A stretch of 62,550 bases of DNA, filler included, from Nemertoderma westbladi (Eukaryota; Animalia; Xenacoelomorpha), in NCBI GenBank assembly GCA_032718475.1. It is 4 parts of 4 records of this genome, joined end to end, with 100 filler letters (N's around TTAATTAATTAA, not from the genome) between each part and the next. Parts side by side here need not be neighbours in the genome. Positions count along the whole stretch, not along the records: positions 1 to 23,932 come from JAUCBJ010002586.1; 3 more parts are not named here. The stretch is one strand, 5' to 3'. Position 1 is the first letter of the stretch, and every line of letters begins with the position of its first letter. A program made the position numbers and the translations under genes. The notes beneath the pieces were generated by a model, which had not been told where the DNA came from, ran no database searches, and worked only from the letters and a program-made list of their open reading frames with translations. Shown here in pieces: positions 2,273-56,707 of this stretch.

Positions 2273-2427
2273 CTACCAGTTAGGGCGCCCGCAATCAGGA
2301 CATAGAATTTCCTCTCCTTCGGTAATAAAGCCCCGGCCAACCAAACTCGTCTCACATCGCCGGCAGACGAAACACTCGTTATGCCAGTGTTTGTCCTCAA
2401 AGGTAATAAATTTAGTGCCGCCAATAC
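2273..2427 (-). CDS. Coding exon 7: LIM4 and stop
   Basis: ttccag|GT acceptor; encodes IGGTKFITFEDKHWHNECFVCRRC...LCPDCGRPNW followed by TAG. Confidence 0.93.
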
Positions 2428-5400
2428 CTGGAAATAATAATAATATATATCAATAATAAAAATAATAAAAGCACAATAAAATATATCTATGACTTGCAGG
2501 TCCTACTACGATAGTAAGACAGTGGTGATCAATAAATTTATAGGGCGTTACCTGTGATTGGTTGACTTCAATCAGTACTTGCTTGTGATTGGTTGACCAC
2601 AATCAGTACTTACCTGTGATTGGTTGACCATAATCAGTATACCTACCTGTAATTGGTTGACCACAATCCGTGCACTTCTTAGCAAATAGTTTCCCAAAAC
2701 AATCGGCGCAGAATGGCCGCTCATCCCGGGTGGTGAACCGTTGTCCGGCCAACGAAACGGCGCATTCGAAGCAGGTGAAGCACTCCCGATGGAAGGGTTC
2801 GCCCCGGTACGTAACTCCACCCGATGTGATCACCTGTAGGGAGAGATGTTGGAAGAACATATGAGTAATATAATGTTACACGAGTCAATGTAAGAAATAA
2901 TGATATGGAGCCTAATTTTTACCTTTAAACTTAGTTTAACTTACAATTATTCTTTATCCACTATAGTACACTTTAATAAACTGTTTTACACATAGTTAAC
3001 ATTAGTACTTACTTACCATTCCATAGTGCACTTAGTTCTTACCGTACTGCACTTAGCTCTTACCTTACTGCACTTAGTTTTTACCTTACTGCACTTAGCT
3101 CTTGCCTTACTGCACTTAGTTCTTACCTTACTGCACTTAGTTCTTACCGTACTGCACTTAGTTCTTACCTTACTGCACTTAGCTCTTACCTTACTGCACT
3201 TTGCTCTTACCTTACTGCACTTAGTTTTTACCTTACTGCACTTAGCTCTTGCCTTACTGCACTTAGCTCTTACCTTAATCCACTTAGTTTTTACCTTACT
3301 GCACTTAGCTCTTACCTTACTGCACTTAGTTTTTACCTTACTGCACTTAGTTCTTACCGTACTGCACTTAGCTCTTACCTTACTGCACTTAGTTCTTACC
3401 TTACTGCACTTAGCTCTTACCTTACTGCACTTAGTTCTTACCTTATTGCATTTAGTTCTTACCTTACTGCACTTAGCTCTTACCTAACTGCACTTAGTTC
3501 TTACCTTATTGCACTTAGTTCTTACCTTACTGCACTTAGTTCTTACCTTATTGCACTTAGCTCTTACCTTACTGCACTTAGTTCTTACCTTATTGCACTT
3601 AGTTCTTACCTTACTGCACTTAGTTCTTACCTTATTGCACTTAGCTCTTACCTTACTCCACTTAGTTCTTACCTTACTGCACTTAGTTCTTACCTTATTG
3701 CATTTAGTTCATACCTTACTGCACTTAGCTCTTACCTTACTGCACTTAGTTCTTACCTTATTGCACTTAGTTCTTACCTTACTGCACTTAGTTCTTACCT
3801 TATTGCACTAGTCAAGTTTTATGAAGAACTGACTGGACTTATTAAGGACATCCCGAAACACAATGTTAAAGTCATTGCTGGTGACCTGAATGCGCAAATT
3901 GGCCCAGAAGACATCAAGGGTTACACCTATAACACCAGTTCTAACAGAAATGGGTACTTACTCTTAGACCTAATGGAAGAATGTGAATTGATACCAACAA
4001 ACAACACATTCGAAAAGAGTAAGTGGAAGCTATGGACCTTTCAATACCCTAATGGAACCAAAGCACAACTGGATTACATCCTTATAAACAAAAAGTGGAG
4101 AAATAGCATGATCAACTGCGAGGCATACAGCTCGTTCAACCTAATTGGTTCGGACCACAGAATTGTGACTGCAGAGATCAGACTCAGTTTGAGAGCCAGC
4201 AAACCCAGGACAAGCAAGCAAATCAACTATGACTGGGAGAAACTCAGAACTGACAATGCTGTAAAGGATGCTTAGACAGTAGAAGTTCAAAACCGCTTTG
4301 AAGCACTTCAGTCAATGGATGAAGACCAATCCACCGATTCAATATACCAGAATATAATAACAGCCCACAAGGTATCAGCTAAGAGGCATATCCCCCAGAA
4401 ACCTAAACGAAAACAGTATGTGCCATGGCAAAACTCTGAGGTTACTTGTAAGAGAGAAGATCTTAAGATAGCCTACAAAGTTAAAACCGAACAACCAACA
4501 ACCGAAAACATTAACAAGGTTGAGAAAGCTAAGGACGATCTTAAATTGGCCTACAACATCAGCCAGGAAAAGTACATACAGGATAAAACTGAAGCAATTA
4601 CAACTGCTCACATACAGCAACAATCAAGACTTACCTGGCAAACTGTAAATGAGGTATCTGGTCGGAAAAGTTGTGCAAAGGGGCGCCTCAAAGCCGATAG
4701 TCCTGAAGAACGTGTTGGGAAGTGGAAAAATCACTTCAGCAACTTGCTTGGGCAGCCACCAAACATCGAGGTCAGCCCTACAAGGAAAATATATGACAAG
4801 ACACTACCTATAGAAACAGGGGACTTCACACCTGCCGAACTCCAAAGAAGCATTAAAAGCATGTCCAATAATAAAGCGAGTGGATTAGATGAAATCCCAG
4901 CGGAGGTATGGAAAACCGGAGTGCTAAATAGACCATTATTGAATGTTTGCAACCGGATGTTAAAAGGGGAAAAGCCACCACCAATTTGGACTAAAGGTCA
5001 ACTAAAGCCTCTCCCCAAGAAAGGAGACCTCGGCATACCAACAAACTATCGTGGGATCTGTCTGCTTGTGGTAGCTTCCAAAATATACAATAAAATGATT
5101 CTATATAGGATTAGGCCTCACATAGAGAAACTACTGCGTAAGAGCCAAAACGGATTTCGACCAAGTAGATCAACAATAGCTCAGATACTTGCACTACGGA
5201 GACTGATTGAAGGAATTAAGTCAAAGAATCTCCCCGCAGTCCTGACTTTTGTGGACTTCAAGAAGGCATTCGACTCCATCCATAGAGTTAAAATGCTTGA
5301 AATCCTAAGAGCTTATGGAATACCAGAAGTAATTGTTGCTGGCATTGGATTGCTATATTGTGACACAGAAGCGCAGGTACTCTCACCAGATGGTGAAACT

Positions 5401-8400
5401 GAGTTTTTCTCAATCCTGGCTGGCGTACTGCAAGGTGACACATTAGCACCATTACTATTTGTAATTGTGCTGGATTACGCAATGAGGACGGCCACAAAGG
5501 GTGAAGATCTGGGATTCACACTTCAAGAACGCAGAAGTAGTAGATATCCGGCAACTACAGTCACAGACACCGACTTTGCGGATGACATCGCCCTGCTCTC
5601 TAATACGCTAGCAGATGCACAGCTTCTACTAAATAAAGTGGAGAGGGCTGCTAAGAAGGTTGGATTGCATATAAATGCTACCAAGACCGAATTCATGACC
5701 TTTAATGTTGATGAAAACTTGACAACCATTGATAATAATTAACTAAGGCAGGTCGATGACTTCCAGTACCTTGGATCATGGATAGAGAGTAGCAAAAAGG
5801 ACATAGAAGTTAGGAAAGCAAAGGCTTGGGTAGCTCTATCAAAAATGGATACCATCTGGAAATCAGATCTCTCCAGGCACCTGAAGACCAAGTTCTTTCG
5901 AGCCACAGTGGAAAGTGTATTTTTATACGGGGGTGAGACCTGGACACTGACTACATCACTTCAACAACGAATTGATGGTTGCTACACAAGACTACTAAGG
6001 GCAGCCCTAAACATCAGCTGGAGACAACACATGACAAACGCCGAGCTTTATGGTACAATACCACCTGTATCAACCACCCTCCGTGAACGCAGATTAAGAT
6101 TCAGTGGGCACTGCTGGCGAAGTAAAGACGAGGTCATACCAGATCTACTTTTCTGGCAACCGACTCATGGAAAGCGTAGTCGTGGACGACCTGCCATAAC
6201 ATATATAGATCAACTTGAAAGGGATACTGAACTTGGGAGAAACGAAATTGCGACAACTATGGAGAATCGGGAAGCCTGGAAGGATCTCATTTCCACTGTC
6301 CGTGTTCGCTCGACCTAGTAGTAGTAGTATTGCACTTAGCTCTTACCTTACTGCACTTAGTTCTTACCTTACTGCACTTAGTTTTTACCTTGCTGCACTT
6401 AGCTCTCACCCTATTGCCATTAGCTCTTACCTTACTGCACTTAGTTCTTACCTTACTGCACTTAGTTCTTACCTTACTGCACTTAGCTCTTACCTTACTG
6501 CCCTTAGTTCTTACCTTATTTAACTTAGTTCTTACCTCACTGCACTTAGTTCTTACCTCACTGCACTTAGTTCTTACCTTACTGCACTTAGTTCTTACCT
6601 TACTGCACATAGTTCTTACCTTACTGCACTTAGTTCTTACCTTACTGCACTTAGCTCTTACCCTATTGCCATTAGCTCTTACCTTACTGCACTTAGTTCT
6701 TACCTTACTGCACATAGTTTTTACCTTACTGCACTTAGCTCTTACCTTACTGCACTTAGTTCTTACCTTACTGCCCTTAGTTCTTACTTTACTGCACTTA
6801 GTTCTTACCTTACTGCACTTAGTTCTTATCTTACTGCACTTAGTTCTTACCTTACTGCACTTAGCTCTTACCCTATTGCCATTAGCTCTTACCTTACTGC
6901 ACTTAGTTCTTCCCTTACTGCACATAGTTCTTACCTTACAGCACTTAGCTCTTCCCTTACTGCACTTTGCTCTTACCTTACTGCACTTAGCTCTTACCTT
7001 ACTGCACTTAGTTCTTACCTTACTGCACTTAGTTCTTACCTTACTGCACCTAGTTCTTACCTTACTGCACTTAGTTCTTACCTTACAGCACTTAGTTCTT
7101 ACCTTACTGCACTTAGCTCTTACCATACTCCACTTAGTTCTTACCTTACTGCACTTAGTTCTTACCTTACTGCACTTAGTTCTTACCTTACTGCACTTTG
7201 CTCTTACCTTACTGCACTTTTCTCTTACCTTACTGCACTTAGCTCTTACCTTACTGCACTTAGTTCTTACCTTACTGCACTTAGTTCTTACCTTACTGCA
7301 CTTAGTTCTTACCTTACTGCACTTAGTTCTTACCTTACTGCACTTAGCTCTTACCATACTCCACTTAGTTCTTACCTTACTGCACTTAGTTCTTACCTTA
7401 CTGCACTTAGTTCTTACCTAACTGCACTTAGTTCTTACCTTACTGCACTTAGTTCTTACCTTACTGCACTTAGTTCTTACCTTACTGCACTTAGTTCTTA
7501 CCTTACTGCACTTAGTTCTTACCTTGCTGCACTTAGTTCTTACCTTACTGCACTTAGTTCTTACCTTACTGCACTTAGTTCTTACCTTACTGCACTTAGT
7601 TCTTACCTTACTGCACTTAGTTCTTACCTTACTGCACTTAGTTCTTACCTTACTGCACTTAGTTCTTACCTTACTGAACTTAGTTCTTACCTTACTGCAC
7701 TTAGTTCTTACCTTACTGCACTTAGTTCTTACCCTACTCCACTTAGTTCTTACCTTACTGCACTTAGCTCTTACCCTACTCCACTTAGTTCTTACCTTAC
7801 TGCACTTAGCTCTTACCTTACTCCACTTAGTTCTTACCTTACTGCACTTAGTTCATACCTTACTGCACTTAGTTCTTACCTTACTGCACTTAGTTCTTAC
7901 CTAACTGCACTTAGTTCTTACCTTACTGCACTTAGTTCTTACCTTGCTGCACTTAGTTCTTACCTTACTGCACTTAGTTCTTACCTTGCTGCACTTAGTT
8001 CTTACCTTACTGCACTTAGCTCTTACCTTACTGCACTTAGTTCTTACCTTACTGCACTTAGCTCTTACCTTACTCCACTTAGTTCTTACCTTACTGCACT
8101 TAGTTCATACCTTACTGCACTTAGTTCTTACCTTACTGCACTTAGTTCTTACCTAACTGCACTTAGTTCTTACCTTACTGCACTTAGTTCTTACCTTGCT
8201 GCACTTAGTTCTTACCTTACTGCACTTAGTTCTTACCTTGCTGCACTTAGTTCTTACCTTACTGCACTTAGCTCTTACCTTACTGCACTTAGTTCTTACC
8301 TTACTGCACTTAGCTCTTACCATACTCCACTTAGTTCTTACCTTACTGCACTTAGTTCTTACCTTACTGCACTTAGTTCTTACCTTGCTGCACTTAGTTC

Positions 8401-11400
8401 TTACCTTACTGCACTTAGTTCTTACCTAACTGCACTTAGTTCTTACCTTACTGCACTTAGTTCTTACCTTACTGCACTTAGTTCTTACCTTGCTGCACTT
8501 AGTTCTTACCTTACTGCACTTAGTTCTTACCTTACTGCACTTAGCTCTTACCTTACTCCACTTAGTTCTTACCTTACTGCACTTAGTTCTTACCCTACTC
8601 CACTTAGTTCTTACCTTACTGCACTTAGCTCTTACCCTACTCCACTTAGTTCTTACCTTACTGCACTTAGCTCTTACCTTACTCCACTTAGTTCTTACCT
8701 TACTGCACTTAGTTCATACCTTACTGCACTTAGTTCTTACCTTACTGCACTTAGTTCTTACCTAACTGCACTTAGTTCTTACCTTACTGCACTTAGTTCT
8801 TACCTTGCTGCACTTAGTTCTTACCTTACTGCACTTAGTTCTTACCTTGCTGCACTTAGTTCTTACCTTACTGCACTTAGCTCTTACCTTACTGCACTTA
8901 GTTCTTACCTTGCTGCACTTAGTTCTTACCTTACTGCACTTAGTTCTTACCTTACTGCACTTAGCTCTTACCTTACTCCACTTAGTTCTTACCTTACTGC
9001 ACTTAGTTCTTACCTTACTGCACTTAGTTCTTACCTTACTGCACTTAGTTCTTACCTTACTGCACTTAGTTCTTACCTTGCTGCACTTAGTTCTTACCCT
9101 ACTCCACTTAGTTCTTACCTTACTGCACTTAGCTCTTACCCTACTCCACTTAGTTCTTACCTTACTGCACTTAGCTCTTACCTTACTCCACTTAGTTCTA
9201 CCTTACTGCACTTAGTTCATACCTTAAATGCACTTAGTTCTTACCTTACTGCACTTAGTTCTTACCTTACTGCACTTAGTTCTTACCTTACTGCACTTAG
9301 TTCTTACCTAACTGCACTTAGTTCTTACCTTACTACACTTAGTTCTTACCTTACTGCACTTAGTTCTTACCTTACTGCACTTAGTTCTTACCTAACTGCA
9401 CTTAGTTCTTACCTTACTGCACTTAGTTCTTACCTTGCTGCACTTAGTTCTTACCTTACTGCACTTAGTTCTTACCTTACTGCACTTAGCTCTTACCTTA
9501 CTCCACTTAGTTCTTACCTTACTGCACTTAGTTCTTACCCTACTCCACTTAGTTCTTACCTTACTGCACTTAGCTCTTACCCTACTCCACTTAGTTCTTA
9601 CCTTACTGCACTTAGCTCTTACCTTACTCCACTTAGTTCTTACCTTACTGCACTTAGTTCATACCTTACTGCACTTAGTTCTTACCTTACTGCACTTAGT
9701 TCTTACCTTACTGCACTTAGTTCTTACCTTACTGCACTTAGTTCTTACCTACCTGCACTTAGTTCTTACCTTACTGCACTTAGTTCTTACCTTACTGCAC
9801 TTAGTTCTTACCTTACTGCACTTAGTTCTTACCTTACTGCACTTAGTTCTTACCTAACTGCACTTAGTTCTTACCTTACTGCACTTAGTTCTTACCTTAC
9901 TGCACTTAGTTCTTACCTTACTGCACTTAGTTCTTACCTTACTGCACTTAGTTCTTACCTTACTGCACTTAGTTCTTACCTAATTGCACTTAGTTCTTAC
10001 CTTTGCACTTAGTTCTTACCTTGCTGCACTTAGTTCTTACCTTACTGCACTTAGTTCTTACCTTACTGCACTTAGCTCTTACCTTACTCCACTTAGTTCT
10101 TACCTTACTGCACTTAGTTCATACCTTACTGCACTTAGTTCTTACCTTACTGCACTTAGTTCTTACCTTACTGCACTTAGTTCTTACCTCACTCCACTTA
10201 GTTCTTACCTTACTGCACCTAGCTCTTACCCTACTCCACTTAGTTCTTACCTTACTACACTTAGCTCTTACCTTACTGCACTTAGTTCTTACCTTACTGC
10301 ACTTAGTTCTTACCTTACTGCACTTAGTTCTTACCTTACTGCACTTAGTTCTTACCTAACTGCACTTAGTTCTTACTTTACTGGACTTAGTTCTTACCTT
10401 ATTGCATTTAGTTCTTACTTTACTGCACTTAGTTCTTACCTTATTGCATTTAGTTCTTACCTTACTGCACTTAGTTCTTACCTTGCTGCACTTAGTGCAT
10501 CGAGTAGCGAAACGGTCTTCGTAACAGGTTGTGCAGTAAGGGTGATCGTCTTTTGGCACGAAGGCTTTAGTTCCAATCGCGATCCTACAGACAAAGCAGG
10601 TGAAACATTCTTCGTGGTAAGAGTGACCTCGCCATTCCAGTTTCTTCGTTCCTGTTGAATAAAGGTTAAGAATAAATATAAGTACTCCAGGTGAAGCAGT
10701 ACTAGTATACGGCATAGGAATAAAAGTAAAAATACACCATTTTTAAGAAAAAAGTAAATACCATGTATTTGTAGGAAATAAAATCTATATTCTTGAAAAG
10801 TCGGCCACATCGGCTAAAAAGACAATTGGTCCGCGTAATTAAATAATATAAATAAATAAATAAATAAATCGAATTAATAATAGTTTGACAAATAATTAAT
10901 TAATGAAAAATTTATCTGTTTTATAACAGATTTATTTATAACAAATCACCACTGTGACGGGAAATTTTAAATCAGTTTGGTCACGGGTTTCAAATAAATT
11001 TTAAATTTGGTGATATCATGTGAATACTATTAATATACAAAGTTAAATGAGGTAATAAATCCTGCGTGCGTCATATTAGTTCAAACATACAAATTTCCCA
11101 GTCGAAAAACCATACACTAAGTGAGATACATTGTATTTATTAGAAAAAATGAAAATAAACGACTCACCAGCTTTAAATACTTTTCCGCAACTGTCGCAAC
11201 GGGAGGCGAAGTGTTCGTCGTGGCAGTCGGCGCAGTAAAGTCGCTCGTTCTTCGCTCCGAACGGTTTATCTACCAGAGAGATTTTACAACTGGAACAGCT
11301 GAAGCAGCGCTCGTGCCAATGTTTGTCTTTGTACGAAAGATCCTAAAAAAAGGAACGACAGATCCTAAAAAAGGTACGAATAATCCTAAAAGGTACGAAT

Positions 11401-13756
11401 AATCCTAAAAGGTACAACGACAGATCTTAAAAGGTACGACAGATCCTATAAGGTACAACTAATCCTAAAAGGTACGGCGACAGATCCTAAAAGGTACGAC
11501 ACATCCTAAAAATAGGTATGACAAATCCTAAACCGTACGACAGATCCTAGATCCTAAAACGCACGAACTAAGAGAAAAAAATGCAGGACCGACCCTAAAA
11601 GGTACGACAGATCCGAAATGAAAGGTACGACAGATCCTAAAAAGGTACGACTCAGCCTCAAAAAAAAGTACGACTGAGCCTCAAAAAAGGTACGGCTGAT
11701 CCCAAAAGGCACGGCAGATCCTAAAAAAACGTACGACAGATCTTAAAAAGAACGGCAGATCCTAAAAGGTACGGAAGATACTAAAAGGTACCACAGATCC
11801 AAAAAAGGTACCTACGACAGATCCTAAAAGTTAATCATGACATCACATTAGAGAAGTTTTGATTCGGGGGAGCATCAAATTGATACTATTTAAAGTGTGA
11901 CTAAAACGTCACAACATACGCCTTATAATATTCATGAATGATGACGTCACGAGACCCACTTTACTGTCTGTGCCATTGATGACGTCACTAGACCCACCTT
12001 ACTGTCTGTGCCAATGATGACATGGCATTCCTCGCACGTGTTGGCGAATATATCCTCGTAACAGCGGACGCAGTAGGGGTGGTCCTCTCGGAGGATGTAA
12101 CGGTGTCCCACCAGCGTCTTGTCGCAGTTCCAACACGCGAAATGACTGCCTGAGCCGCCGCCGCCGCCGCTTGTTGTCTTGACGACGGTGCGTTCGGTGC
12201 GTTGGCCCCCGCCTCCGAAGCTAACGGCACGAGAGGACAGCTCCCTCCAGTTCTTGCTGCGCACAAAATTCTATAGAATATAAACGAAATTAAACAGTAA
12301 TTTATATATTCCTATGAATTAAGAAACAATATGTAAATATAACTGTCACTCTACTAGCTTTACCACCCAGAGAAAGGCTTGCTTCCTGATTCAATGACGA
12401 AATCTACCATATGTTGTGGGGCGATGGGTTACAATGTTTGAACGTGGTCGGTCGGTCGGTCGGTCGGTCGGTCGGTCGGTCGGTCGGTCGGTCGGTCGGT
12501 CGGTCGGTCGGTCGGTCGGTCGGTCGGTCGGTCGGTCGGTCGGTCGGTCGGTCGGTCGGTCGGTCGGTCGGTCGGTCGGTCGGTCGGTCGGTCGGTCGGT
12601 CGGTCGGTCGGTCGGTCGGTCGGTCGGTCGGTCGGTCGGTCGGTCGGTCGGTCGGTCGGTCGGTCGGTCGGTCGGTCGGTCGGTCGGTCGGTCGGTCGGT
12701 CGGTCGGTCGGTCGGTCGGTCGGTCGGTCGGTCGGTCGGTCGGTCGGTCGGTCGGTCGGTCGGTCGGTCGGTCGGTCGGTCGGTCGGTCGGTCGGTCGGT
12801 CGGTCGGTCGGTCGGTCGGTCGGTCGGTCGGTCGGTCGGTCGGTCGGTCGGTCGGTCGGTCGGTCGGTCGGTCGGTCGGTCGGTCGGTCGGTCGGTCGGT
12901 CGGTCGGTCGGTCGGTCGGTCGGTCGGTCGGTCGGTCGGTCGGTCGGTCGGTCTTACAGACCGATACTTACGTCGTTTTGTTGGAAGAATGCCTGGTCCA
13001 CGTTAAAGAATTCCGCTAACTCCATGATGGATATCCTCCCGTCGTTGTTTGTATCGTAAACGCGAAGCAACAGCTGCACCATGTCATCGATATCGCGTTG
13101 TCCGGCGTTGGGGTTCTTGGCCCTGACTGTGTCCCGGCATAGCTCCTAAACAATAGAACAACAATTTTCTCTATAGGCACGCGGTCCACCCTCATGGTTG
13201 CTATACAAAATAATATTTTATGATTCGTTTGGTATACAAAAAATAAATAATATTACATTCACTAATTCAAAAAGTAAGAAAATATTATCCAAATGGCAAA
13301 AATAAACTAAAATAGACCAGTAAATTAATGTTATTATACCTGGTATAAAAAGTAATGCATTATTCCACATAAAGTAATATATTATTCAGACATCTGGTAT
13401 AAAAAACAAAACATTATTCCACCTGATGCAGAACGTAGATTATTCTGACACCTGGTATAAAAAGTAATACATTATTCTACCTGGTATAAAAAGTAAGATA
13501 TCATTCCACCTGGTATAAAAAGTAATACATTATTCTACCTGGTATAAAAAGTAAGATATCATTCCACCTGGTATAAAAAGTAATACATTATGAAACTAAC
13601 CCGCAACTCGCGCGCGGCAACGTGACCGCTGAAGTTAGTGTCGTAACGGCCCCACAGGGAGAAGAAATCTCCAACACCCACGTTATAGGTGCTGCGCTGA
13701 CCGTGTTGGAGGGGGGACCCGGTCCCAGAGTGGGTGGAGTAGCTGTGTCGAGACAT
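2273..13756 (-). CDS. FHL: EF-hand pair + four-and-a-half LIM domain protein (FHL/Limpet family); join complement(2273..2427,2647..2833,10482..10651,11168..11342,11998..12270,12972..13145,13601..13756), 429 aa
   Basis: All six introns are GT-AG and the phases are compatible (0,0,0,1,0,1). The spliced product has a half LIM plus four LIM domains and ends GTKFITFEDKHWHNECF...LVGRGFITEGEEILCPDC, as in FHL2/Limpet. Confidence 0.88.
2548..2672 (-). repeat. Four tandem copies (steps of 33/31/31 bp) of the exon-6 end plus its splice donor
   Basis: gattgtggtcaaccaatcacag|gtaag is repeated; donor-equivalent positions are 2646, 2613, 2582 (GC) and 2551. Confidence 0.9.
2647..2833 (-). CDS. Coding exon 6: LIM3 and start of LIM4
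   Basis: ctacag|GTG acceptor and G|gtaggt donor; encodes VITSGGVTYRGEPFHRECFTC...FCADCFGKLFAKKCTDCGQPIT. Confidence 0.93.
3025..10496 (-). repeat. 21-bp minisatellite (ACTAAGTGCAGTAAG GTAAGA)n, about 235 copies, derived from the exon-5 donor junction and split by an RTE insertion
   Basis: The array is continuous with the exon-5 3' end (...ACTAAGTGCAGCAAG|GTAAGA). It lies in two blocks, 3025-3809 and 6328-10496. Confidence 0.97.
3810..6327 (+). mobile_element. 5'-truncated RTE-clade LINE (partial APE endonuclease + RT), two premature stops
   Basis: The motifs AGDLNAQIG, QLDYIL, GSDH, NYRGI, QNGFR, DFKKAFDS, GVLQGD and DFADD all lie in one frame, with stops at 4273 and 5740. There is a (TAG)4 tail and a 9-bp TSD TATTGCACT at 3801-3809 and 6328-6336. 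Confidence 0.95.
10482..10651 (-). CDS. Coding exon 5: LIM2 and first CxxC of LIM3
   Basis: caacag|GA acceptor and AAG|gtaaga donor; encodes YHEECFTCFVC...PYCTTCYEDRFATRCTKCSK. Confidence 0.93.
11168..11342 (-). CDS. Coding exon 4: LIM1 and start of LIM2
   Basis: ttttag|GAT acceptor and G|gtgagt donor; encodes DLSYKDKHWHERCFSCSSC...YCADCHDEHFASRCDSC. Confidence 0.93.
11335..11835 (-). repeat. Degenerate 19-23 bp tandem array (about 20+ copies) of the exon-4 acceptor junction
   Basis: The unit CTTTTAG|GATCTGTCGTAC matches the true junction TTTTAG|GATCTTTCGTAC. Confidence 0.88.
11938..12020 (-). repeat. 38-bp duplication of the exon-3 end plus donor
   Basis: tggcacagacagtaa(g/a)|gtgggtct(a/c)gtgacgtcatc occurs twice. 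Confidence 0.88.
11998..12270 (-). CDS. Coding exon 3: Gly-rich linker, half LIM and start of LIM1
   Basis: ctatag|AAT acceptor and AAG|gtgggt donor; encodes HFACWNCDKTLVGHRYILREDHPYCVRCYEDIFANTCEEC. Confidence 0.92.
12446..12953. repeat. Perfect (GGTC)n microsatellite, about 127 units
   Basis: Uninterrupted ggtc run in intron 2. Confidence 0.99.
12972..13145 (-). CDS. Coding exon 2: canonical EF-hand (YDTNNDGRISIMELAEFF)
   Basis: tttag|GAG acceptor and GAC|gtaagt donor; 174 nt open; 12-residue EF loop D-x-N-x-D-G-x-I-x-x-x-E. Confidence 0.85.
13330..13592 (-). repeat. About 29-bp tandem repeat (about 8 copies) containing TTTTTATACCAG|GT
   Basis: Recurrent acattattc(c/t)acctggtataaaaagtaa on the + strand, starting just inside intron 1. 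Confidence 0.85.
13601..13756 (-). CDS. Coding exon 1: ATG plus first, degenerate EF-hand (DFFSLWGRYDTNFSGHVAARELR)
   Basis: ATG at 13756 and donor CGG|GTTAGT at 13600. An acceptor-like ttcccctag ends at 13767, which suggests a further upstream exon, probably UTR. Confidence 0.75.
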
Positions 13757-17287: not shown

Positions 17288-20200
17288 TTATATCATTATG
17301 ACCGCGCCCTATAATGATTTATCCGGCCTGTAATGCTTAACATTTCATTATAAATTCATTGTAAATATATCATTATGACCGCGCCCTGTAATGATTTGTC
17401 CCGCCTGTAATGCTTAACATTTCATTATAAATTCATTGCAAATATATCATTATGACCGCGCCCTGTAATGATTTGTCCGGCCTGTAATGCTTAACATTTC
17501 ATTATAAATTCATTGTAAATATATCATTATGACCGCGCCCTATAATGATTTGTCCGGCCTGTAATGCTTAACATTTCATTATAAATTCATTGTAAATATA
17601 TCATTATGACCGCGCCCTATAATGATTTGTCCGGCCTGTAATGCTTAACATTTCATTATAAATTCATTGTAAATATATCATTATGACCGCGCCCTATAAT
17701 GATTTGTCCGGCCTGTAATGCTTAACATTTCATTATAAATTCATTGTAAATATATCATTATGACCGCGCCCTGTAATGATTTGTCCGGCTTGTAATGCTT
17801 AACATTTCATTATAAATTCATTGTAAATATATCATTATGACCGCGCCCTATAATGATTTGTCCGGCTTGTAATGCTTAACATTTCATTATAAATTCATTG
17901 TAAATATATCATTATGACCGCGCCCTATAATGATTTGTCCGGCCTGTAATGCTTAACATTTCATTATAAATTCATTGTAAATATATCATTATGACCGCGC
18001 CCTATAATGATTTGTCCGGCTTGTAATGCTTAACATTTCATTATAAATTCATTGTAAATATATCATTATGACCGCGCCCTGTAATGATTTGTCCGGCCTG
18101 TAATGCTTAACATTTCATTATAAATTCATTGTAAATATATCATTATGACCGCGCCCTATAATGATTTGTCCGGCTTGTAATGCTTAACATTTCATTATAA
18201 ATTCATTGTAAATATATCATTATGACCGCGCCCTATAATGATTTGTCCGGCCTGTAATGCTTAACATTTCATTATAAATTCATTGTAAATATATCATTAT
18301 GACCGCGCCCTGTAATGATTTGTCCGGCTTGTAATGCTTAACATTTCATTATAAATTCATTGTAAATATATCATTATGACCGCGCCCTATAATGATTTGT
18401 CCGGCTTGTAATGCTTAACATTTCATTATAAATTCATTGTAAATATATCATTATGACCGCGCCCTATAATGATTTGTCCGGCTTGTAATGCTTAACATTT
18501 CATTATAAATTCATTGTAAATATATCATTATGACCGCGCCCTATAATGATTTGTCCGGCTTGTAATGCTTAACATTTCATTATAAATTCATTGTAAATAT
18601 ATCATTATGACCGCGCCCTGTAATGATTTGTCCGGCCTGTAATGCTTAACATTTCATTATAAATTCATTGTAAATATATCATTATGACCGCGCCCTATAA
18701 TGATTTGTCCGGCTTGTAATGCTTAACATTTCATTATAAATTCATTGTAAATATATCATTATGACCGCGCCCTATAATGATTTGTCCGGCTTGTAATGCT
18801 TAACATTTCATTATAAATTCATTGTAAATATATCATTATGACCGCGCCCTGTAATGATTTGTCCGGCTTGTAATGCTTAACATTTCATTATAAATTCATT
18901 GTAAATATATCATTATGACCGCGCCCTGTAATGATTTGTCCGGCCTGTAATGCTTAACATTTCATTATAAATTCATTGTAAATATATCATTATGACCGCG
19001 CCCTATAATGATTTGTCCGGCTTGTAATGCTTAACATTTCATTATAAATTCATTGTAAATATATCATTATGACCGCGCCCTATAATGATTTGTCCGGCCT
19101 GTAATGCTTAACATTTCATTATAAATTCATTGTAAATATATCATTATGACCGCGCCCTGTAATGATTTGTCCGGCCTGTAATGCTTAACATTTCATTATA
19201 AATTCATTGTAAATATATCATTATGACCGCGCCCTATAATGATTTGTCCGGCCTGTAATGCTTAACATTTCATTATAAATTCATTGTAAATATATCATTA
19301 TGACCGCGCCCTATAATGATTTGTCCGGCCTGTAATGCTTAACATTTCATTATAAATTCATTGTAAATATATCATTATGACCGCGCCCTATAATGATTTG
19401 TCCGGCTTGTAATGCTTAACATTTCATTATAAATTCATTGTAAATATATCATTATGACCGCGCCCTGTAATGATTTGTCCGGCCTGTAATGCTTAACATT
19501 TCATTATAAATTCATTGAATGCATGATTGAATGTATTGCTTAACATTTCATTATAAATTCATTGTAAATATATCATTATGACCGCGCCCTATAATGATTT
19601 GTCCGGCTTGTAATGCTTAACATTTCATTATAAATTCATTGTAAATATATCATTATGACCGCGCCCTATAATGATTTGTCCGGCTTGTAATGCTTAACAT
19701 TTCATTATAAATTCATTGTAAATATATCATTATGACCGCGCCCTGTAATGATTTGTCCGGCCTGTAATGCTTAACATTTCATTATAAATTCATTGTAAAT
19801 ATATCATTATGACCGCGCCCTATAATGATTTGTCCGGCTTGTAATGCTTAACATTTCATTATAAATTCATTGTAAATATATCATTATGACCGCGCCCTGT
19901 AATGATTTGTCCGGCCTGTAATGCTTAACATTTCATTATAAATTCATTGTAAATATATCATTATGACCGCGCCCTATAATGATTTGTCCGGCTTGTAATG
20001 CTTAACATTTCATTATAAATTCATTGTAAATATATCATTATGACCGCGCCCTATAATGATTTGTCCGGCCTGTAATGCTTAACATTTCATTATAAATTCA
20101 TTGTAAATATATCATTATGACCGCGCCCTGTAATGATTTGTCCGGCCTGTAATGCTTAACATTTCATTATAAATTCATTGTAAATATATCATTATGACCG

Positions 20201-22773
20201 CGCCCTGTAATGATTTGTCCGGCTTGTAATGCTTAACATTTCATTATAAATTCATTGTAAATATATCATTATGACCGCGCCCTGTAATGATTTGTCCGGC
20301 TTGTAATGCTTAACATTTCATTATAAATTCATTGTAAATATATCATTATGACCGCGCCCTATAATGATTTGTCCGGCTTGTAATGCTTAACATTTCATTA
20401 TAAATTCATTGTAAATATATCATTATGACCGCGCCCTATAATGATTTGTCCGGCTTGTAATGCTTAACATTTCATTATAAATTCATTGTAAATATATCAT
20501 TATGACCGCGCCCTGTAATGATTTGTCCGGCCTGCAATGCTTAACATTTCATTATAAATTCATTGTAAATATATCATTATGACCGCGCCCTATAATGATT
20601 TGTCCGGCTTGTAATGCTTAACATTTCATTATAAATTCATTGTAAATATATCATTATGACCGCGCCCTGTAATGATTTGTCCGACCTGTAATGCTTAACA
20701 TTTCATTACAAATTCATTGTAAATATATCATTATGACCGCGCCCTATAATGATTTGTCCGGCTTGTAATGCTTAACATTTCATTATAAATTCATTGTAAA
20801 TATATCATTATGACCGCGCCCTATAATGATTTGTCCGGCTTGTAATGCTTAACATTTCATTATAAATTCATTGTAAATATATCATTATGACCGCGCCCTA
20901 TAATGATTTGTCCGGCTTGTAATGCTTAACATTTCATTATAAATTCATTGTAAATATATCATTATGACCGAGCCCTATAATGATTTGTCCGGCTTGTAAT
21001 GCTTAACATTTCATTATAAATTCATTGTAAATATATCATTATGACCGCGCCCTGTAATGATTTGTCCGGCCTGTAATGCTTAACATTTCATTATAAATTC
21101 ATTGTAAATATATCATTATGACCGCGCCCTATAATGATTTGTCCGGCTTGTAATGCTTAACATTTCATTATAAATTCATTGTAAATATATCATTATGACC
21201 GCGCCCTGTAATGATTTTTCCGGCCTGTAATGATTAACATTTCATTATAAATTCATTGTAAATATATCATTATGACCGCGCCCTGTAATAATTTGTCCGG
21301 CTTGTAATGCTTAACATTTCATTATAAATTCATTGTAAATATATCATTATGACCGCGCCCTGTAATGATTTGTCCGGCCTGTAATGCTTAACATTTCATT
21401 ATAAATTCATTGTAAATATATCATTATGACCGCGCCCTGTAATGATTTGTCCGGCCTGTAATGCTTAACATTTCATTATAAATTCATTGTAAATATATCA
21501 TTATGACCGCGCCCTATAATGATTTGTCCGGCCTGTAATGCTTAACATTTCATTATAAATTCATTGTAAATATATCATTATGACCGCGCCCTGTAATGAT
21601 TTGTCCGGCCTGTAATGCTTAACATTTCATTATAAATTCATTGTAAATATATCATTATGACCGCGCCCTATAATGATTTGTCCGGCTTGTAATGCTTAAC
21701 ATTTCATTATAAATTCATTGTAAATATATCATTATGACCGCGCCCTGTAATGATTTGTCCGGCCTGTAATGCTTAACATTTCATTATAAATTCATTGTAA
21801 ATATATCATTATGACCGCGCCCTATAATGATTTGTCCGGCTTGTAATGCTTAACATTTCATTATAAATTCATTGTAAATATATCATTATGACCGCGCCCT
21901 GTAATGATTTGTCCGGCCTGTAATGCTTAACATTTCATTATAAATTCATTGTAAATATATCATTATGACCGCGCCCTGTAATGATTTGTCCGGCCTGTAA
22001 TGCTTAACATTTCATTATAAATTCATTGTAAATATATCATTATGACCGCGCCCTATAATGATTTGTCCGGCCTGTAATGCTTAACATTTCATTATAAATT
22101 CATTGTAAATATATCATTATGACCGCGCCCTGTAATGATTTGTCCGGCCTGTAATGCTTAACATTTCATTATAAATTCATTGTAAATATATCATTATGAC
22201 CGCGCCCTATAATGATTTGTCCGGCTTGTAATGCTTAACATTTCATTATAAATTCATTGTAAATATATCATTATGACCGCGCCCTGTAATGATTTGTCCG
22301 GCCTGTAATGCTTAACATTTCATTATAAATTCATTGTAAATATATCATTATGACCGCGCCCTATAATGATTTGTCCGGCTTGTAATGCTTAACATTTCAT
22401 TATAAATTCATTGTAAATATATCATTATGACCGCGCCCTATAATGATTTGTCCGGCCTGTAATGCTTAACATTTCATTATAAATTCATTGTAAATATATC
22501 ATTATGACCGCGCCCTGTAATGATTTGTCCGGCCTGCAATGCTTAACATTTCATTATAAATTCATTGTAAATATATCATTATGACCGCGCCCTGTAATTA
22601 TTTGTCCGGCTTGTAATGCTTAACATTTCATTATAAATTCATTGTAAATATATCATTATGACCGCGCCCTGTAATGATTTGTCCGGCTTGTAATGCTTAA
22701 CATTTCATTATAAATTCATTGTAAATATATCATTATGACCGCGTCCTATAATGATTTGTCCGGCTTGTAATGT
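17288..22773. repeat. 77-bp satellite, about 71 near-identical copies
   Basis: Unit atatatcattatgaccgcgccct(a/g)taatgatttgtccggc(c/t)tgtaatgcttaacatttcattataaattcattgtaa. Confidence 0.98.
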
Positions 22774-23932
22774 GTAAAAGCCTTTGCTGAATTGCCCCGT
22801 TATTTTTATTATCTTTTACATTAAAATACTCTGTAGTTGATTCAATAAGTGTAAGAGACCGTATTATTGCTGTATCGGTGTTTTTAGAGGATCTAAGACC
22901 TATTTCCTCCGTATGTGTACTGTGAAAGGCATATTTTATGATTCTATGGCAATTCGTGACGCAAAGGGGTGATAGCTACTCTTGAACAGTAGTTACTATG
23001 ACTACGGTTAACAGCTGACATTCATACGTGTTGATTTCCTTTGTTCTACGGCGTCTCTCAGTTCAGTCAGCCAATTAGAGCGTTTTGTGGCTCCTTGTAC
23101 AGAAAATTTCCGAGAAATGACGCAATGCCTATGTGCAGTGTTTACATTCAGTCCTAAGCCAAAGAAAGAACGGCTTGGAAGTATTTTGTGCTTTACTGTT
23201 TTTAGTCTTACACTAGTAGGTTTAATTATAAAGGGCATATATCCTTTAACCTAACGACTACCTGACTGATCATACATCCTGACTGCTGAAACATTGCAAA
23301 CTCATAACAATCAGTGTTCAGTTGTTGTTTTATACTGCTATTTACTGTCAGTTCTTCATAATATGGTTGATGAATTATTATATTTGGAATAACGATAAAT
23401 AACCCCGAAACCCAATATTCTTGATATACCGAAGGTAAGAGAGAAAGGTTACCAATAACGATTGTGACTTATGTTAAAGTGGTTTGAAGTGAATCTAATG
23501 TTATTTGATAGACCCTACATGAGTCAGCCTGTGTTCCTTTTATATGTGACTAAAATCAGTGAAGATTGGCAGATTAGTGTGCAGTATTGTGCAGCATTGT
23601 GTATGAGTGAGTCTGTTAAAGAAGCAATTCCTAAAGAATGCGCCATATATGTGAATTATAATTAAGCCATATCGTTGTGAGTAGTTTAAGTCATAACTCT
23701 GTTTATATAGATAAAGCGCCACGTCCTAAAGGAACTGTTAATATTCCCGAAGGTAAATAATATTGTCAGAGATTATATAATACTGTCAGTCGAATAATAC
23801 ATTAGGCTTACATAGCAACAAAATTAAACCGTCGAACCCAATCTCCCGGGAATATCCAGCGGGTGAATGGTCGCGCACGGATTGGTTTCGACTAGTGTAG
23901 TGAATCAAATACGTGTCATAGACTAAAAACTG

Positions 23933-24032
23933 NNNNNNNNNNNNNNNNNNNNNNNNNNNNNNNNNNNNNNNNNNNNTTAATTAATTAANNNNNNNNNNNN
24001 NNNNNNNNNNNNNNNNNNNNNNNNNNNNNNNN
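23933..24032. other. Assembly gap spacer
   Basis: 100 nt: N run with a central TTAATTAATTAA. Confidence 0.98.
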
Positions 24033-24388: not shown

Positions 24389-24777
24389 TAATAAAATACA
24401 TTTTCATGTAATATTGAAATTTAAAATATGGGGGTGGTAAGAATACACTGAGGGGGGTTAAATTTCACTAAAAAATCACCCAGAGTAAGCCTAGTTTCAC
24501 CCCCGGTTAAAATACCGTATATATAGTGAATTCTAACCGGGGGTGAATTTTTAGGGGGGTGGTAATTTTCTGCTACACCAGTAGTTGTAAAATAATCAGA
24601 TACCGCATCAGGTATGGGGGCTACCGACAACGACGGCGGCCTATGAGCTAAGTAGCAAAGGTGGACGGACACTGACACTACTACAGTAGGCCTGCTACAC
24701 TCTACTGTTGTACTGATACTAGCTAATAAATGGGTTGCTAAGAAACCTTGAAGATGGTTGCTAAGCAATCGAATCTC

Positions 24778-25165
24778 ATGCCAACTACACACACATGCCA
24801 ACTACACATATGCCAACTACACACACATGCCAACTACACACACGTGCCAACTACACATATGCCAACTACACATGCCAACTACACATATGCCAACTACACA
24901 TGCCAACTACACATATGCCAACTACACACATATGCCAACTACACATGCCAACTACACACACATGCCAACTACACACATATGCCAACTACACACACGTGCC
25001 AACTACACACATATGCCAACTACACACACGTGCCAACTACACACACATGCCAACTACACATGCCAACTACACACACATGCCAAATACACACATATGCCAA
25101 CTACACACACACATGCCAACTACACACACGTGCCAACTACACACACATGTGCCAACTACACACTC
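24778..25165. repeat. Variable-length minisatellite TGCCAACTA(CA)n
   Basis: About 23 units of 13-21 bp. Confidence 0.95.
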
Positions 25166-25917
25166 ATAAAAAATCAGATTTTATGTGTAAAGTTGACTGG
25201 CACTTGTGGGCTTCCGTAGTATGCAAGCACACCTACTGCAATGCAGTATCGGAGTAGGCCTATTGATGTATTGTTGGTAAGTTCATTTAGTTGAGTAAAC
25301 CTATCACTGTAACACTCTGAAGCCCTGTTTATACTTCGTCTGCAGACATCATCAGACACGTCTGTAGCACGTCTGCGTCAGACACCATAAGACATGCTTC
25401 AGTGTCTGACACTACACCGACATGCTCACCAATGTCTGTGACAGACACAATTACGTCTGTGGCGTTTTATAAATGGTTAAAAAAATATATGTCTGATATC
25501 AGATACATGAAGTGGGGCTTTCGCGCAGCACCTGAGATAAACTTATGTTAAGTGTCAAATCAAAGAATTATACACGCAAGAAATGGCTAAAGGTTTTCAT
25601 TTCAGACATTTATAAAATGTTTTAATTTCATACCACTAGCGCGAGACTGGTGAACTGCCTAGGGATTACTGTCCTCACAAAGACGTGTATCTTGAAACGG
25701 ATAACAAAATTTGTTATTATATATTATTTAATAATGATAACTGCGAGTATATAATTGTGAATTTATTCATTTAATCAATGTTAATCACCATGAATTTAAT
25801 TAATTGTGGTGTCAAAAAACGTACAACACTCTCCGCTTTCAATTTGATATAAGCCACGTGTGAAATAATTGAGATTAAATGTGTTTTCGACCGTTTCCTC
25901 GTGTGTTTACAAAAAAA

Positions 25918-26674: not shown

Positions 26675-28705
26675 AGGCTGGTTTACACGTGGCAACATTT
26701 TGAGCAACTTTGTCGGCAACTACAGTAGTTAACTGTTTTGGACCATCTTAACTTGTCTGTTGTTTACACGTGGCAACTTTACAAACTACTTGGCCGGCAA
26801 CTTTTTGAGCAACTTAGTTGATTTGATGCAAAATAATGGTCTCTTTAGAAACTGGGCTATTATTGTATTATTGCACTGCCTCCCAATAATTGTGGAACAA
26901 TTCGTATTCCCACTGTCCCTACTTTACATTATGAATTACAGTAAAACTGAAAAACGGTACAATTTACAGTGAAATATTCAAAAGAAAATCGGCCGCAATT
27001 GCCTACGTCTCATACAGTAAGCCCCTATAAAGTAAGTTGGATGAACCGGCAAGGAATATGCGGAAGTGTACCAATGCCAGTGGTGCATGCATATCTTATG
27101 TATATCATGCATATCTTACATATCTATGCATTTATTAGAGTGTGATGCACAACAATATCGGCGATATGCGGATGCATTGCCGACACATTTGAGTATCTCA
27201 TTATGTCAATCAAACCATTATTAGTATAACAATACTGTAACATGAGACTAACGCGGGAAGGTGTCCCAGAACAACTCATACCATACATAATTTATCTTCC
27301 GTGTTGTTTAACCTTCCGTGTTTGGCATTACTACACTTTGGGAACCCACTTTTTGAGAGAATTTTCTCTTATGAACATTACGAAAATCGAATATGTAAAA
27401 TACTAGGCCTTAGGCCTACTAATAATAGTGTCAGAAGATAATCTCCTGTCACTAATATGTTAGCTAGTAATTTTGATTTTGTGTTAGCTAGTACTTTTGA
27501 TTTTGTGTTAGCTAGTACTTTTGATTTTGTGTTAGCTAGTAATTTTGATTTTGTGTTAGCTTGTACTTTTGATTTTGTGTTAGCTAGTACTTTTGATTTT
27601 GTGTTAGCTAGTACTTTTGATTTTGTGTTAGCTAGTACTTTTGATTTTGTGTTAGCTAGTACTTTTGATTTTGTGTTAGCTAGTACTTTTGATTTTGTGT
27701 TAGCTAGTACTTTTGATTTTGTGTTAGCTAGTACCGTACTTTTGATTTTGTGTTAGCTAGTACTTTTGATTTTGTGTTAGCTAGTACTTTTGATTTTGTG
27801 TTAGCTAGTACTTTTGATTTTGTGTTAGCTAGTACTTTTGATTTTGTGTTAGCTAGTACTTTTGATTTTGTGTTAGCTAGTACTTTTGATTTTGTGTTAG
27901 CTAGTACTTTTGATTTTGTGTTAGCTAGTACTTTTGATTTTGTGTTAGCTAGTACTTTTGATTTTGTGTTAGCTAGTACTTTTGATTTTGTGTTAGCTAG
28001 TACTTTTGATTTTGTGTTAGCTAGTACTTTTGATTTTGTGTTAGCTAGTACTTTTGATTTTGTGTTAGCTAGTACTTTTGATTTTGTGTTAGCTAGTACT
28101 TTTGATTTTGTGTTAGCTAGTACTTTTGATTTTGTGTTAGCTAGTACTTTTGATTTTGTGTTAGCTAGTACTTTTGATTTTGTGTGTTAGCTAGTACTTT
28201 TGATTTTGTGTTAGCTAGTACTTTTGATTTTGTGTTAGCTAGTACTTTTGATTTTGTGTTAGCTAGTACTTTTGATTTTGTGTTAGCTAGTACTTTTGAT
28301 TTTGTGTTAGCTAGTACTTTTGATTTTGTGTTAGCTAGTACTTTTGATTTTGTGTTAGCTAGTACTTTTGATTTTGTGTTAGCTAGTACTTTTGATTTTG
28401 TGTTAGCTAGTACTTTTGATTTTGTGTTAGCTAGTACCTTTGATTTTGTGTTAGCTAGTACTTTTGATTTTGTGTTAGCTAGTACTTTTGATTTTGTGTT
28501 AGCTAGTACTTTTGATTTTGTGTTAGCTGGTACTTTTGATTTTGTGTTAGCTAGTACTTTTGATTCTGTGTTAGCTAGTACTTTTGATTTTGTGTTAGCT
28601 AGTACTTTTGATTTTGTGTTAGCTAGTACGGTACTTTTGATTTTGTGTTACTAGTACTTTTTTTGATCGAAGTTGCTCTATACGTTACCACGTGTAAACC
28701 GGCCT
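26675..28705. mobile_element. PIF/Harbinger-like non-autonomous element
   Basis: Reads TAA|AGGCTGGTTTACACGTGGCAAC ... GTTACCACGTGTAAACCGGCCT|TTA: a 22-bp TIR with TWA flanks. Confidence 0.75.
27457..28662. repeat. 24-bp tandem array, about 50 copies
   Basis: (gttagctagtacttttgattttgt)n inside the Harbinger-like element. Confidence 0.98.
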
Positions 28706-35050: not shown

Positions 35051-35905
35051 TGCAATATCGGTGGATACACCGGATACCGGTGCAATATCGGTGGATACAC
35101 AGGATACTGGTGTAATATCGGTGGATACACCGGATACTGGTGCAATATCGGTGGATACACCGGATACTGGTGCAATATCGGTGGATACACCGGATACTGG
35201 TGCAATATCGGTGGATACACCGGATACGGGTGCAATATCGGTGGATACACCGGATATTGTTGCAATATCGGTGGATACACCGGATACTGGTGCAATATCG
35301 GTGGATACACCGGATACTGGTGCAATATCGGTGGATACACCGGATACTGGTGCAATATCGGTGGATACACCGGATACTGGTGCAATATCGGTGGATACAC
35401 CGGATACTGGTGTAATATCGGTGGATACACCGGATACTGGTGTAATATCGGTGGATACACCGGATACTGGTGCAATATCGGTGGATACACTGGATACTGG
35501 TGCAATATCGTGGGATACACCGGATACTGGTGCAATATCAGTGGATACATCGGATACTGGTGCAATATCGGAGGATACACTGAATACTGGTGCAATATCG
35601 GTGGAAACACCGGATACTGGTGCAATATCGGTGGATACACCGGATAATGGTGCAATATCGGAGGATACACTGGATACTGGTGCAATATCGGTGGATACAC
35701 CGGATACTGGTGCAATGTCGGTGGATACACCGGATACTGATGCAATATCGGTGGATACACCGGATACTGGTGCAATATCGGTGGATACACCGGATACTGG
35801 TGCAATATCGGAGGATACACCGGAGTGCAATATCGGTGGATACACCGGATACTGGTGCAATATCGGTGGATACACCGGATACTGGTGCAATATCGGCGGA
35901 TAAAC
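35051..35905. repeat. 30-bp tandem array, about 28 copies
   Basis: (tgcaatatcggtggatacaccggatactgg)n. Confidence 0.98.
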
Positions 35906-39790: not shown

Positions 39791-39890
39791 NNNNNNNNNN
39801 NNNNNNNNNNNNNNNNNNNNNNNNNNNNNNNNNNTTAATTAATTAANNNNNNNNNNNNNNNNNNNNNNNNNNNNNNNNNNNNNNNNNNNN
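39791..39890. other. Assembly gap spacer
   Basis: N run with a central TTAATTAATTAA. Confidence 0.98.
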
Positions 39891-56607: not shown

Positions 56608-56707
56608 NNNNNNNNNNNNNNNNNNNNNNNNNNNNNNNNNNNNNNNNNNNNTTAATTAATTAANNNNNNNNNNNNNNNNNNNNNNNNNNNNNNNNNNNNN
56701 NNNNNNN
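56608..56707. other. Assembly gap spacer
   Basis: N run with a central TTAATTAATTAA. Confidence 0.98.

Follow-up and report, generated by a model that had tools for sequence, protein, structure and literature searches.

Minisatellites that begin with a unit lying across an exon-intron boundary have been described in man for F7 (a 37-bp VNTR in intron 7), 6-16, CBS (intron 13), LAMIN B2 and PDGF (intron 4). The account of these arrays (PMC1557585) reports that F7 minigenes used the most upstream functional copy alone and that two extra copies were used in the 6-16 and CBS arrays. The lancelet "mirage" minisatellites of Adh3, the globins BflGb6 and BflGb9, troponin C and PGBD5 are reported to occur without disturbance of splicing (PMC3087553, PMC3902484), and variable internal tandem repeats at exon-intron boundaries have been described for human duplicated genes (PMC2812944). 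When strong donors were duplicated at least 45 nt apart, HeLa cells and extracts spliced almost wholly at the downstream site (PMC3413131), a preference which would predict that splicing drifts into an array of donors. A literature search returned no genome-wide survey of such boundary repeats.

We analyzed a window of 62,550 nucleotides (filler included) from Nemertoderma westbladi, in which a 21-bp unit is repeated about 236 times within intron 5 of an FHL/Limpet-type LIM-domain gene on the minus strand. An earlier note on this DNA had treated the arrangement as new, but the class was already described in the human and lancelet genes, and the array is an unusually large example of it. On the sequence tests reported below, the minisatellite most probably represents a neutral expansion that is likely to be removed whole by splicing at the first donor (probability of about 0.78).

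The host gene and its third LIM domain

The gene model comprises seven coding exons:

13601..13756, minus strand: predicted coding exon 1, putative ATG at 13756, EF-hand-like by eye
12972..13145, minus strand: predicted coding exon 2, EF-hand
11998..12270, minus strand: coding exon 3, with a Gly-rich linker, the FHL half-LIM and the start of LIM1
11168..11342, minus strand: coding exon 4
10482..10651, minus strand: coding exon 5, 170 nt long, covering the end of LIM2 and the first Cys pair of LIM3; unit 1 takes its exonic part from the last 15 nt
2647..2833, minus strand: coding exon 6, rest of LIM3 and start of LIM4
2273..2427, minus strand: coding exon 7, up to the stop codon

The encoded protein carries a half LIM followed by four LIM domains (PF25076 and PF00412), the arrangement of the FHL/Limpet (TES class) proteins, and both its 429-codon frame and its zinc ligands are intact. 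The TES class includes the Fhl and Etes/Limpet families as described in PMC3305314, which are alike in having the half LIM and four LIM domains; the host gene differs from them in that no PET domain was found in the window and an in-frame upstream EF-hand exon is present instead. This upstream exon was confirmed as an EF-hand (Atlas), exon 1 gave no Pfam match, and the search for homologues of the EF-hand exon returned none at E <= 0.001. Judging from exon phase only, the EF-hand exon would be fused in frame upstream of the LIM part, and none of the 131 listed homologues shows an EF-hand plus LIM architecture in its precomputed Pfam list.

Splicing from donor 1 gives a spacer of 16 residues (X16) in LIM3, as the earlier note had stated, and donor 2 would give X23 by the addition of seven residues. 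Spacers were read with a general LIM pattern, which returned an artefactual X30 for one LIM, in the 125 homologues with four full LIM domains (131 fetched, 6 too short), a redundant set of mostly insects and nematodes. The LIM3 spacer was X16 in 124 of them, X19 in one and X23 in none, and the longer form that would mark a regulated 5' splice-site cassette was thus not found among these homologues. A horseshoe-crab isoform model (P0081) carries three extra residues at the exon 5/6 junction, and an Owenia model (P0009) reads out of the exon at the intron 5 junction, from which intron 5, indirectly, looks old. Seven loci were recovered in a metagenome scan, none from a close relative: two (L001, L002) are Limpet-like genes in which the exon 5/6 junction is read through with neither intron nor boundary repeat, two (L004, L006) encode distant LIM proteins, and three (L003, L005, L007) gave no match line in the follow-up search.

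The 21-bp array, its retrotransposon and further boundary repeats

Intron 5 contains the following features:

10476..10484, minus strand: donor 1, AAG/GTAAGA, first intron base 10481; gives the conserved X16 spacer and is the presumed donor in vivo
6331..10496, minus strand: minisatellite segment A, with about 199 units of 21 bp, among which variant units form higher-order repeats (Tandem Repeats Finder: 198.5 copies, 93% matches)
10356..10358, minus strand: first in-frame stop, TAG in unit 7
6328..6336, plus strand: 9-bp target-site duplication, right copy
3810..6327, plus strand: 5'-truncated non-LTR retrotransposon with endonuclease and RVT_1, lying antisense to the gene; its 835 codons include 2 internal stops
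3801..3809, plus strand: 9-bp target-site duplication, left copy
3027..3809, minus strand: minisatellite segment B, about 38 units, further from the consensus (Tandem Repeats Finder: 37.3 copies, 90% matches)
2834..3026, minus strand: unique 193-nt remainder of intron 5, acceptor at 2834

Unit 1 consists of the last 15 nt of exon 5 and the first 6 nt of intron 5, with the donor at 10481. As in mirage and F7-type arrays, the tandem unit straddles a real splice site and holds sequence from both exon and intron, the authentic donor lies in the terminal copy, and the other copies are intronic and mostly retain the splice signal. The roughly 235-fold amplification of the donor proposed in the earlier note was reproduced both by repeat finding and by a unit-by-unit walk, which returned 199 + 38 units when the broken units at the retrotransposon junctions and at the far end were counted; with up to 3 mismatches allowed, a 20-nt piece of the unit matched 229 times, whereas shuffled sequence would yield 0.01 matches. 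The same note had the 15 + 6 nt composition of the unit right, but the consensus it quoted as the exon end is one base off: the Ser codon is AGT in 215 of 231 units and AGC in 15, and the real exon end reads AGC. Its 21-bp period also stands, whereas the exact seven-codon spacing of donors is broken by three indel units (10013, 9238 and 9216). Intron 5 measures 7648 nt, and the 193 nt left 3' of the array agree with the earlier figure of about 190 nt for an intron lacking both array and retrotransposon. A strong donor-like site at 3016 within this remainder is probably a decayed terminal unit of the array.

The array comprises 49 distinct unit types, with higher-order repeats at 12, 29, 41 and 45 units. 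Mean differences per unit amount to 0.42-0.72 for interior units of segment A, to 0.95 at its exon end and to 1.1-1.74 near the retrotransposon and in segment B, the turnover pattern of a tandem repeat with homogenised interior and diverged ends, and 8 of 11 segment B variants are common to segment A. The retrotransposon, whose label "RTE-type" comes from the earlier note and fits its short tandem 3' tail, splits the array into 199 + 38 units between matching 9-bp target-site duplications, and landed in an already existing array. The variety of unit types, the higher-order repeats, the divergence rising towards the ends, the variants common to both segments and the inserted element all argue against an assembly artefact, in which the copy number would be inflated or the array built by the assembler; N gaps elsewhere in the window are the point in its favour, and we hold it to be very improbable, although the exact copy count could be off. 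The two stops of the element correspond to a divergence of about 1.7% (95% interval 0.2-6.2%), so that the array is older than this, the gene having stayed intact meanwhile.

Three further boundary-spanning repeats, missed by the earlier note, occur in the same gene, together with a fourth repeat that lies next to a donor:

2548..2668, minus strand: 31 bp x 3.8, the second repeat to span a donor, at the junction of exon 6 with intron 6; out of frame
11937..12021, minus strand: 38 bp x 2.2, the third repeat to span a donor, at the junction of exon 3 with intron 3; out of frame, the donor of the copy weakened
11348..11830, minus strand: degenerate repeat of about 19 bp x 23 that spans an acceptor and ends where intron 3 meets exon 4
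13331..13591, minus strand: 29-bp x 9 repeat beside the intron 1 donor, with a pyrimidine run and CAG/GT units; adjacent, not spanning

The periods of the three spanning repeats (38, 19 and 31) include no multiple of 3.

Choice among near-identical donors

A pre-mRNA with about 235 donor-like sites had been proposed, and GT at +1/+2 is indeed retained in 227 of the 235 scored units; however, donors 4 and 6 carry a G>A change at -1 and their pairing with U1 is far weaker (-4.5 vs -9.5 kcal/mol), which leaves donors 2, 3 and 5 as strong alternatives free of a stop. These three have the same U1-pairing energy as donor 1 and similar predicted accessibility (0.62-0.70 for the four sites), so that only position can separate them, and predicted RNA structure did not single out donor 1. 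Most array units match the real donor in the strength of their U1 pairing. Of the 878 GT sites in intron 5, 186 equal or exceed donor 1 in U1 pairing, a count that takes in donor 1 itself and 6 sites that exceed it. A polypyrimidine tract with AG followed by GT, the signature of recursive splicing, was not found in the array, whose pyrimidine fraction is 0.29, and none of the 23 acceptor-like sites of intron 5 lies within it.

The frame stays open for about six units, in agreement with the earlier note, up to the in-frame TAG at 10358-10356. An open frame through unit 6, a period that is a multiple of 3 and three donors matching donor 1 in strength are properties expected of a splice-length dial, in which regulated use of donors 2, 3 and 5 would lengthen LIM3 by 7, 14 or 28 residues and alter partner binding, while later donors would tune output via NMD. 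The extra copies used in human 6-16 and CBS, as given in PMC1557585, and the three residues added at the same junction in the horseshoe-crab model point the same way. In-frame stops, however, are present in 18 of 231 units, so that five stop-free units after unit 1 are expected with P = 0.67 and the six open units fit chance. Distinct substitutions numbered 10 over the 7 positions of the donor core and 20 over the 14 positions elsewhere (P = 1.0), and synonymous, missense and stop changes stood at 6/21/3 against 12/47/4 possible; neither selection on the donor motif nor coding constraint on the added reading frame was seen in these 30 distinct substitutions, a number that gives little power. 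When weighted by copy, changed copies per position are fewer in the core (5.6) than elsewhere (10.6), a difference driven by a few expanded variants. The proposal of a dial had rested on the superfamily-wide X16-23 range, whereas X23 is missing from the homologues of this LIM; moreover, the three sister repeats are out of frame and about 230 copies beyond the stop would be needless for it. We consider the dial distinctly improbable.

Binding of many U1 snRNPs by the array might instead shield a long intron from premature cleavage and polyadenylation, or titrate U1, as the number of intact GT units and their pairing with U1 would allow. Yet there is nothing to shield: AATAAA occurs nowhere in intron 5, its only two ATTAAA both lie outside the array segments, and the intron would be short without the array and the retrotransposon. 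Donor positions are no more conserved than the rest of the unit, and a single locus is small relative to the nuclear U1 pool. Such a role, also advanced in the earlier note, appears extremely unlikely.

The array might also be a mildly harmful allele, whose downstream copies compete so that a sizeable share of transcripts is degraded after mis-splicing or skipping of exon 5, leaving the gene hypomorphic or buffered by a paralogue. The preference for the downstream of two strong donors beyond about 30-45 nt (PMC3413131) argues for it, as do the many GT sites that rival donor 1 and the acceptor-like sites, at 4049, 3970 and 3941, supplied by the antisense retrotransposon 142-250 nt upstream of the first donor of segment B at 3798. 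Against it, neither the frame nor the zinc ligands are damaged, even though the element, itself younger than the array, has acquired two stops, purging of donor motifs in the array was tested and not seen, and comparable arrays are described as tolerated in F7 (PMC1557585) and in lancelets (PMC3087553, PMC3902484). We regard this reading as distinctly unlikely.

The sequence tests and the human F7 precedent support neutral expansion tolerated through first-donor choice, as one option of the earlier note had it, and nothing in those tests favours a function for the array. A short tandem duplication across the boundary would leave the working copy on the exon and an extra copy in the intron, at little cost, and slippage, unequal exchange or conversion could then amplify and homogenise the inner copies. 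Donor 1, the first donor downstream of the exon 5 acceptor, would presumably win by position and not by sequence, by the kind of exon definition or oriented scanning demonstrated in human F7. Possible leak would fall mainly on donors 2-3 and amount to noise, and products from donor 7 onward would mostly contain a stop.

Boundary repeats in the gene and in described systems

Boundary repeats occupy 4 of the 12 splice sites of the gene (P ~0.0004; 0.004 without the 21-bp array), an excess that neutrality alone leaves unexplained and that bears on the origin of such repeats, a point also unexplained in lancelets. That exon-intron boundaries are preferred targets of a mutational amplification process in this animal, and that donors 2, 3 and 5 are used often enough to yield LIM3 variants with a longer first zinc finger, is a speculative and unlikely proposal; if true, the locus would be both a 236-site natural ruler for position-based 5' splice-site choice and a source of isoforms dependent on allele length.

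Published work offers two opposing rules for a row of identical donors, first-site scanning as in F7 and downstream preference beyond about 45 nt as in HeLa, and the array provides a test case for them. The "proximal donor" of the earlier note is the exon-proximal one, and "intron-proximal" in PMC3413131 denotes the downstream site. With more than 200 near-identical donors on a 21-nt ladder, position dependence could be read directly in one RNA-seq experiment.

As a class, the boundary array is known and modest, and the remaining interest lies in its size, its 21-nt in-frame period and the 4 of 12 sites. Human duplicated-gene repeats, as described in PMC2812944, are likewise boundary minisatellite expansions able to give alternative splicing or new introns, but concern recent paralogues and intron gain, whereas intron 5 appears old. 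The lancelet mirages, in the reports cited, resemble this gene in their tandem donor or acceptor boundaries, in the presence of several per gene and in inner copies homogenised with ends diverged; the 21-bp unit falls within the 10-72 bp range given for Adh3, but mirages have 2-7 copies (PMC3087553, PMC3902484; Adh3 outside this count) against a 5-kb array holding a retrotransposon here. The F7, 6-16, CBS, LAMIN B2 and PDGF arrays, as presented in PMC1557585, share with it a first unit that spans the exon-intron boundary and identical donors that follow in the intron. They count 5-9 copies in F7 and 10-25 in the other four, compared with about 236 in N. westbladi, whose 21-nt period is in frame as well as shorter; the human splicing patterns come from measurement, and first-donor use in the present array is a prediction from sequence.

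The host gene and its array of 21-bp units

The array-bearing gene was reconstructed from seven predicted coding exons, which together give a frame of 429 codons closed by a single terminal stop.

Predicted coding exons of the host gene (all minus strand)
13756-13601, exon 1
13145-12972, exon 2, encoding an EF-hand
12270-11998, exon 3
11342-11168, exon 4
10651-10482, exon 5 (170 nt)
2833-2647, exon 6
2427-2273, exon 7

Exons 3-7 supply the FHL/Limpet-type part, a half LIM plus four LIM domains, and from the phase and the lack of a Met before the LIM in exon 3 we infer that exons 1-2 belong with them. The best homologues are scattered across bilaterian animals, with no close relative among them. 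The EF-hand exon(s) (12972-13756, minus) appear to lie in frame upstream of the LIM exons, where a PET domain would stand; the EF-hand family was absent from all 131 listed homologues, and a search for homologues with the EF-hand exon found none. The product is possibly a calcium-binding FHL protein, a putative fusion.

In intron 5 one 21-bp unit forms two arrays on the minus strand, segment A (6331-10496) and segment B (3027-3809), in which 199 and 38 units respectively were walked unit by unit. Unit 1 comprises the exon's last 15 nt and the intron's first 6 nt. The GT is kept in 227 of 235 scored units, and a 20-nt piece of the unit returned 229 matches against 0.01 from shuffles, confirming the array across the exon 5 end and its donor described in the earlier note. 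Two further structural claims of that note also held: the reading frame through the units stays open up to a TAG at 10358-10356, and 193 unique nt, at the 3' end, remain of the 7648-nt intron once the array and the retrotransposon are removed. One synonymous base separates the exon's own unit from the unit consensus, and a -1 G>A change weakens donors 4 and 6 (numbered by unit). A second GTAAG occurs 5 bases upstream of the donor (position -5) in 169/235 units (10481-3027, minus) and is missing from the exon's own unit because of a synonymous C; its U1 pairing is weak (-5.1) and its relevance doubtful.

History of the array and neighbouring repeats

The array contains 49 unit types, with blocks of variant units repeated at spacings of 12, 29, 41 and 45 units and the lowest divergence in the interior. 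A 5'-truncated non-LTR element (labelled an RTE in the earlier note), encoding endonuclease and reverse transcriptase, lies antisense within it. Since identical 9-bp target-site copies flank this element within the array, and 8 of the 11 variants of segment B also occur in segment A, the array is older than the insertion. Two internal stops in 835 codons correspond to about 1.7% divergence (0.2-6.2%), if the element was intact on arrival. Such an insertion, with its accumulated divergence, speaks against an artefact of assembly and shows that the gene has been tolerating the array for some time. Within the antisense element, acceptor-like sites placed 142, 171 and 250 nt upstream of the first donor in segment B (3798-4049, minus) could delimit a candidate cryptic exon with that donor.

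Further boundary-spanning repeats were detected in the same gene.

Other boundary-spanning repeats
Intron 3 donor, 38 bp x 2.2
Intron 3 acceptor, about 19 bp x 23
Intron 6 donor, 31 bp x 3.8

A boundary-spanning 16-mer is repeated solely on the intron side at 4/12 splice sites, against a background for such positions of 3.1% across the window (P = 0.0004) and 5.1% within the gene span (P = 0.0025). Without the array from which the analysis started, 3/11 sites remain (P = 0.004 and 0.016, respectively). For a single gene, picked for having an array, this suggests but does not establish a bias toward boundary repeats; the period is divisible by 3 in only one of the four.

In the intron 6 donor repeat, copy 2 (2612-2620, minus) carries a consensus-like donor, out of frame, with -12.3 kcal/mol versus -13.7 for the real donor (the scoring was one base off register). 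A 29-bp x 9 repeat (13331-13591, minus) begins next to the donor of intron 1; its units each end in a pyrimidine run and CAG, mostly followed by GT, resembling a row of recursive-splice-site motifs. A perfect 4-bp microsatellite of 127 copies (12446-12953) starts 18 nt past the intron 2 donor. Seven further arrays show that the window is rich in minisatellites.

Further large tandem arrays
1079-1891, 143-bp period
17289-22772, 77-bp period
24777-25167, 17-bp period
27458-28661, 24-bp period
35051-35906, 30-bp period
60283-60997, 68-bp period
61841-62497, 15-bp period

At about 51600-56500 lies a putative element, LTR-retrotransposon-like by eye, whose two ends share a ~95-bp direct repeat and whose interior holds decayed ORFs. 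At 23932-24032, 39791-39890 and 56608-56707 a fixed 12-bp linker stands within runs of N.

Evidence bearing on function

Predicted U1 pairing, scored against the U1 motif, was identical for donors 1, 2, 3 and 5, and 186 of the 878 GT sites in intron 5 scored at least as high as donor 1, which in the predicted structure is no more exposed than neighbouring donors. Distinct substitutions fell at an equal rate in the donor core (10 at 7 positions) and elsewhere (20 at 14), with low power, and their coding effects agreed with the possible spectrum, again with low power. In-frame stops occur in 18/231 units, and five more open units are unremarkable (P = 0.67, low power).

Intron 5 interrupts a LIM domain whose first-finger spacer is X16 in 124 of the 125 homologues with four full LIMs; X23, the spacer that donor 2 would give, occurs in none. 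One Tachypleus isoform model (P0081) has X19, carrying three additional residues where exons 5 and 6 join; an alternative splice site close by at the homologous intron would fit this. The array contains neither a poly(A) signal nor an acceptor-like site, thus disfavouring telescripting and recursive splicing. The interpretation in the earlier note is supported in part: of the options it offered, neutral expansion was supported and a U1 sink or telescripting element was not.

Proposed origin and comparison with known systems

The array most likely began as a small duplication spanning the exon-intron boundary, which ordinary minisatellite turnover then amplified, and the spliceosome would pick the first donor, adjoining the 170-nt exon, by position. 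Human F7 minigenes show exactly such behaviour (PMC1557585): every pseudo-site can work, but splicing goes only to the intact one lying furthest upstream, and skipping of the exon increases with distance. Against a strict first-donor rule, PMC1557585 also reports two extra copies used in 6-16 and CBS, and in HeLa cells duplicated strong donors at least 45 nt apart splice at the downstream site (PMC3413131), making some leak to donors 2-3 plausible. From donor 7 onward, predicted products would mostly carry a stop at least 187 nt upstream of the last exon junction. If the usual rule applies in this animal, NMD would act on them. That a boundary-directed mutational bias is combined with genuine splicing from donors 2, 3 and 5 seems improbable.

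The class to which the array can be compared is already described, as F7-type VNTRs in humans (PMC1557585) and as "mirages" in lancelets (PMC3087553, PMC3902484), and its three sequence-level defining features are present here; length polymorphism and normal splicing also define the class. The array differs from those cases in its short in-frame period, its internal retrotransposon and its copy number (about 236 versus 2-25 in the cases considered), a difference from the described class in degree.
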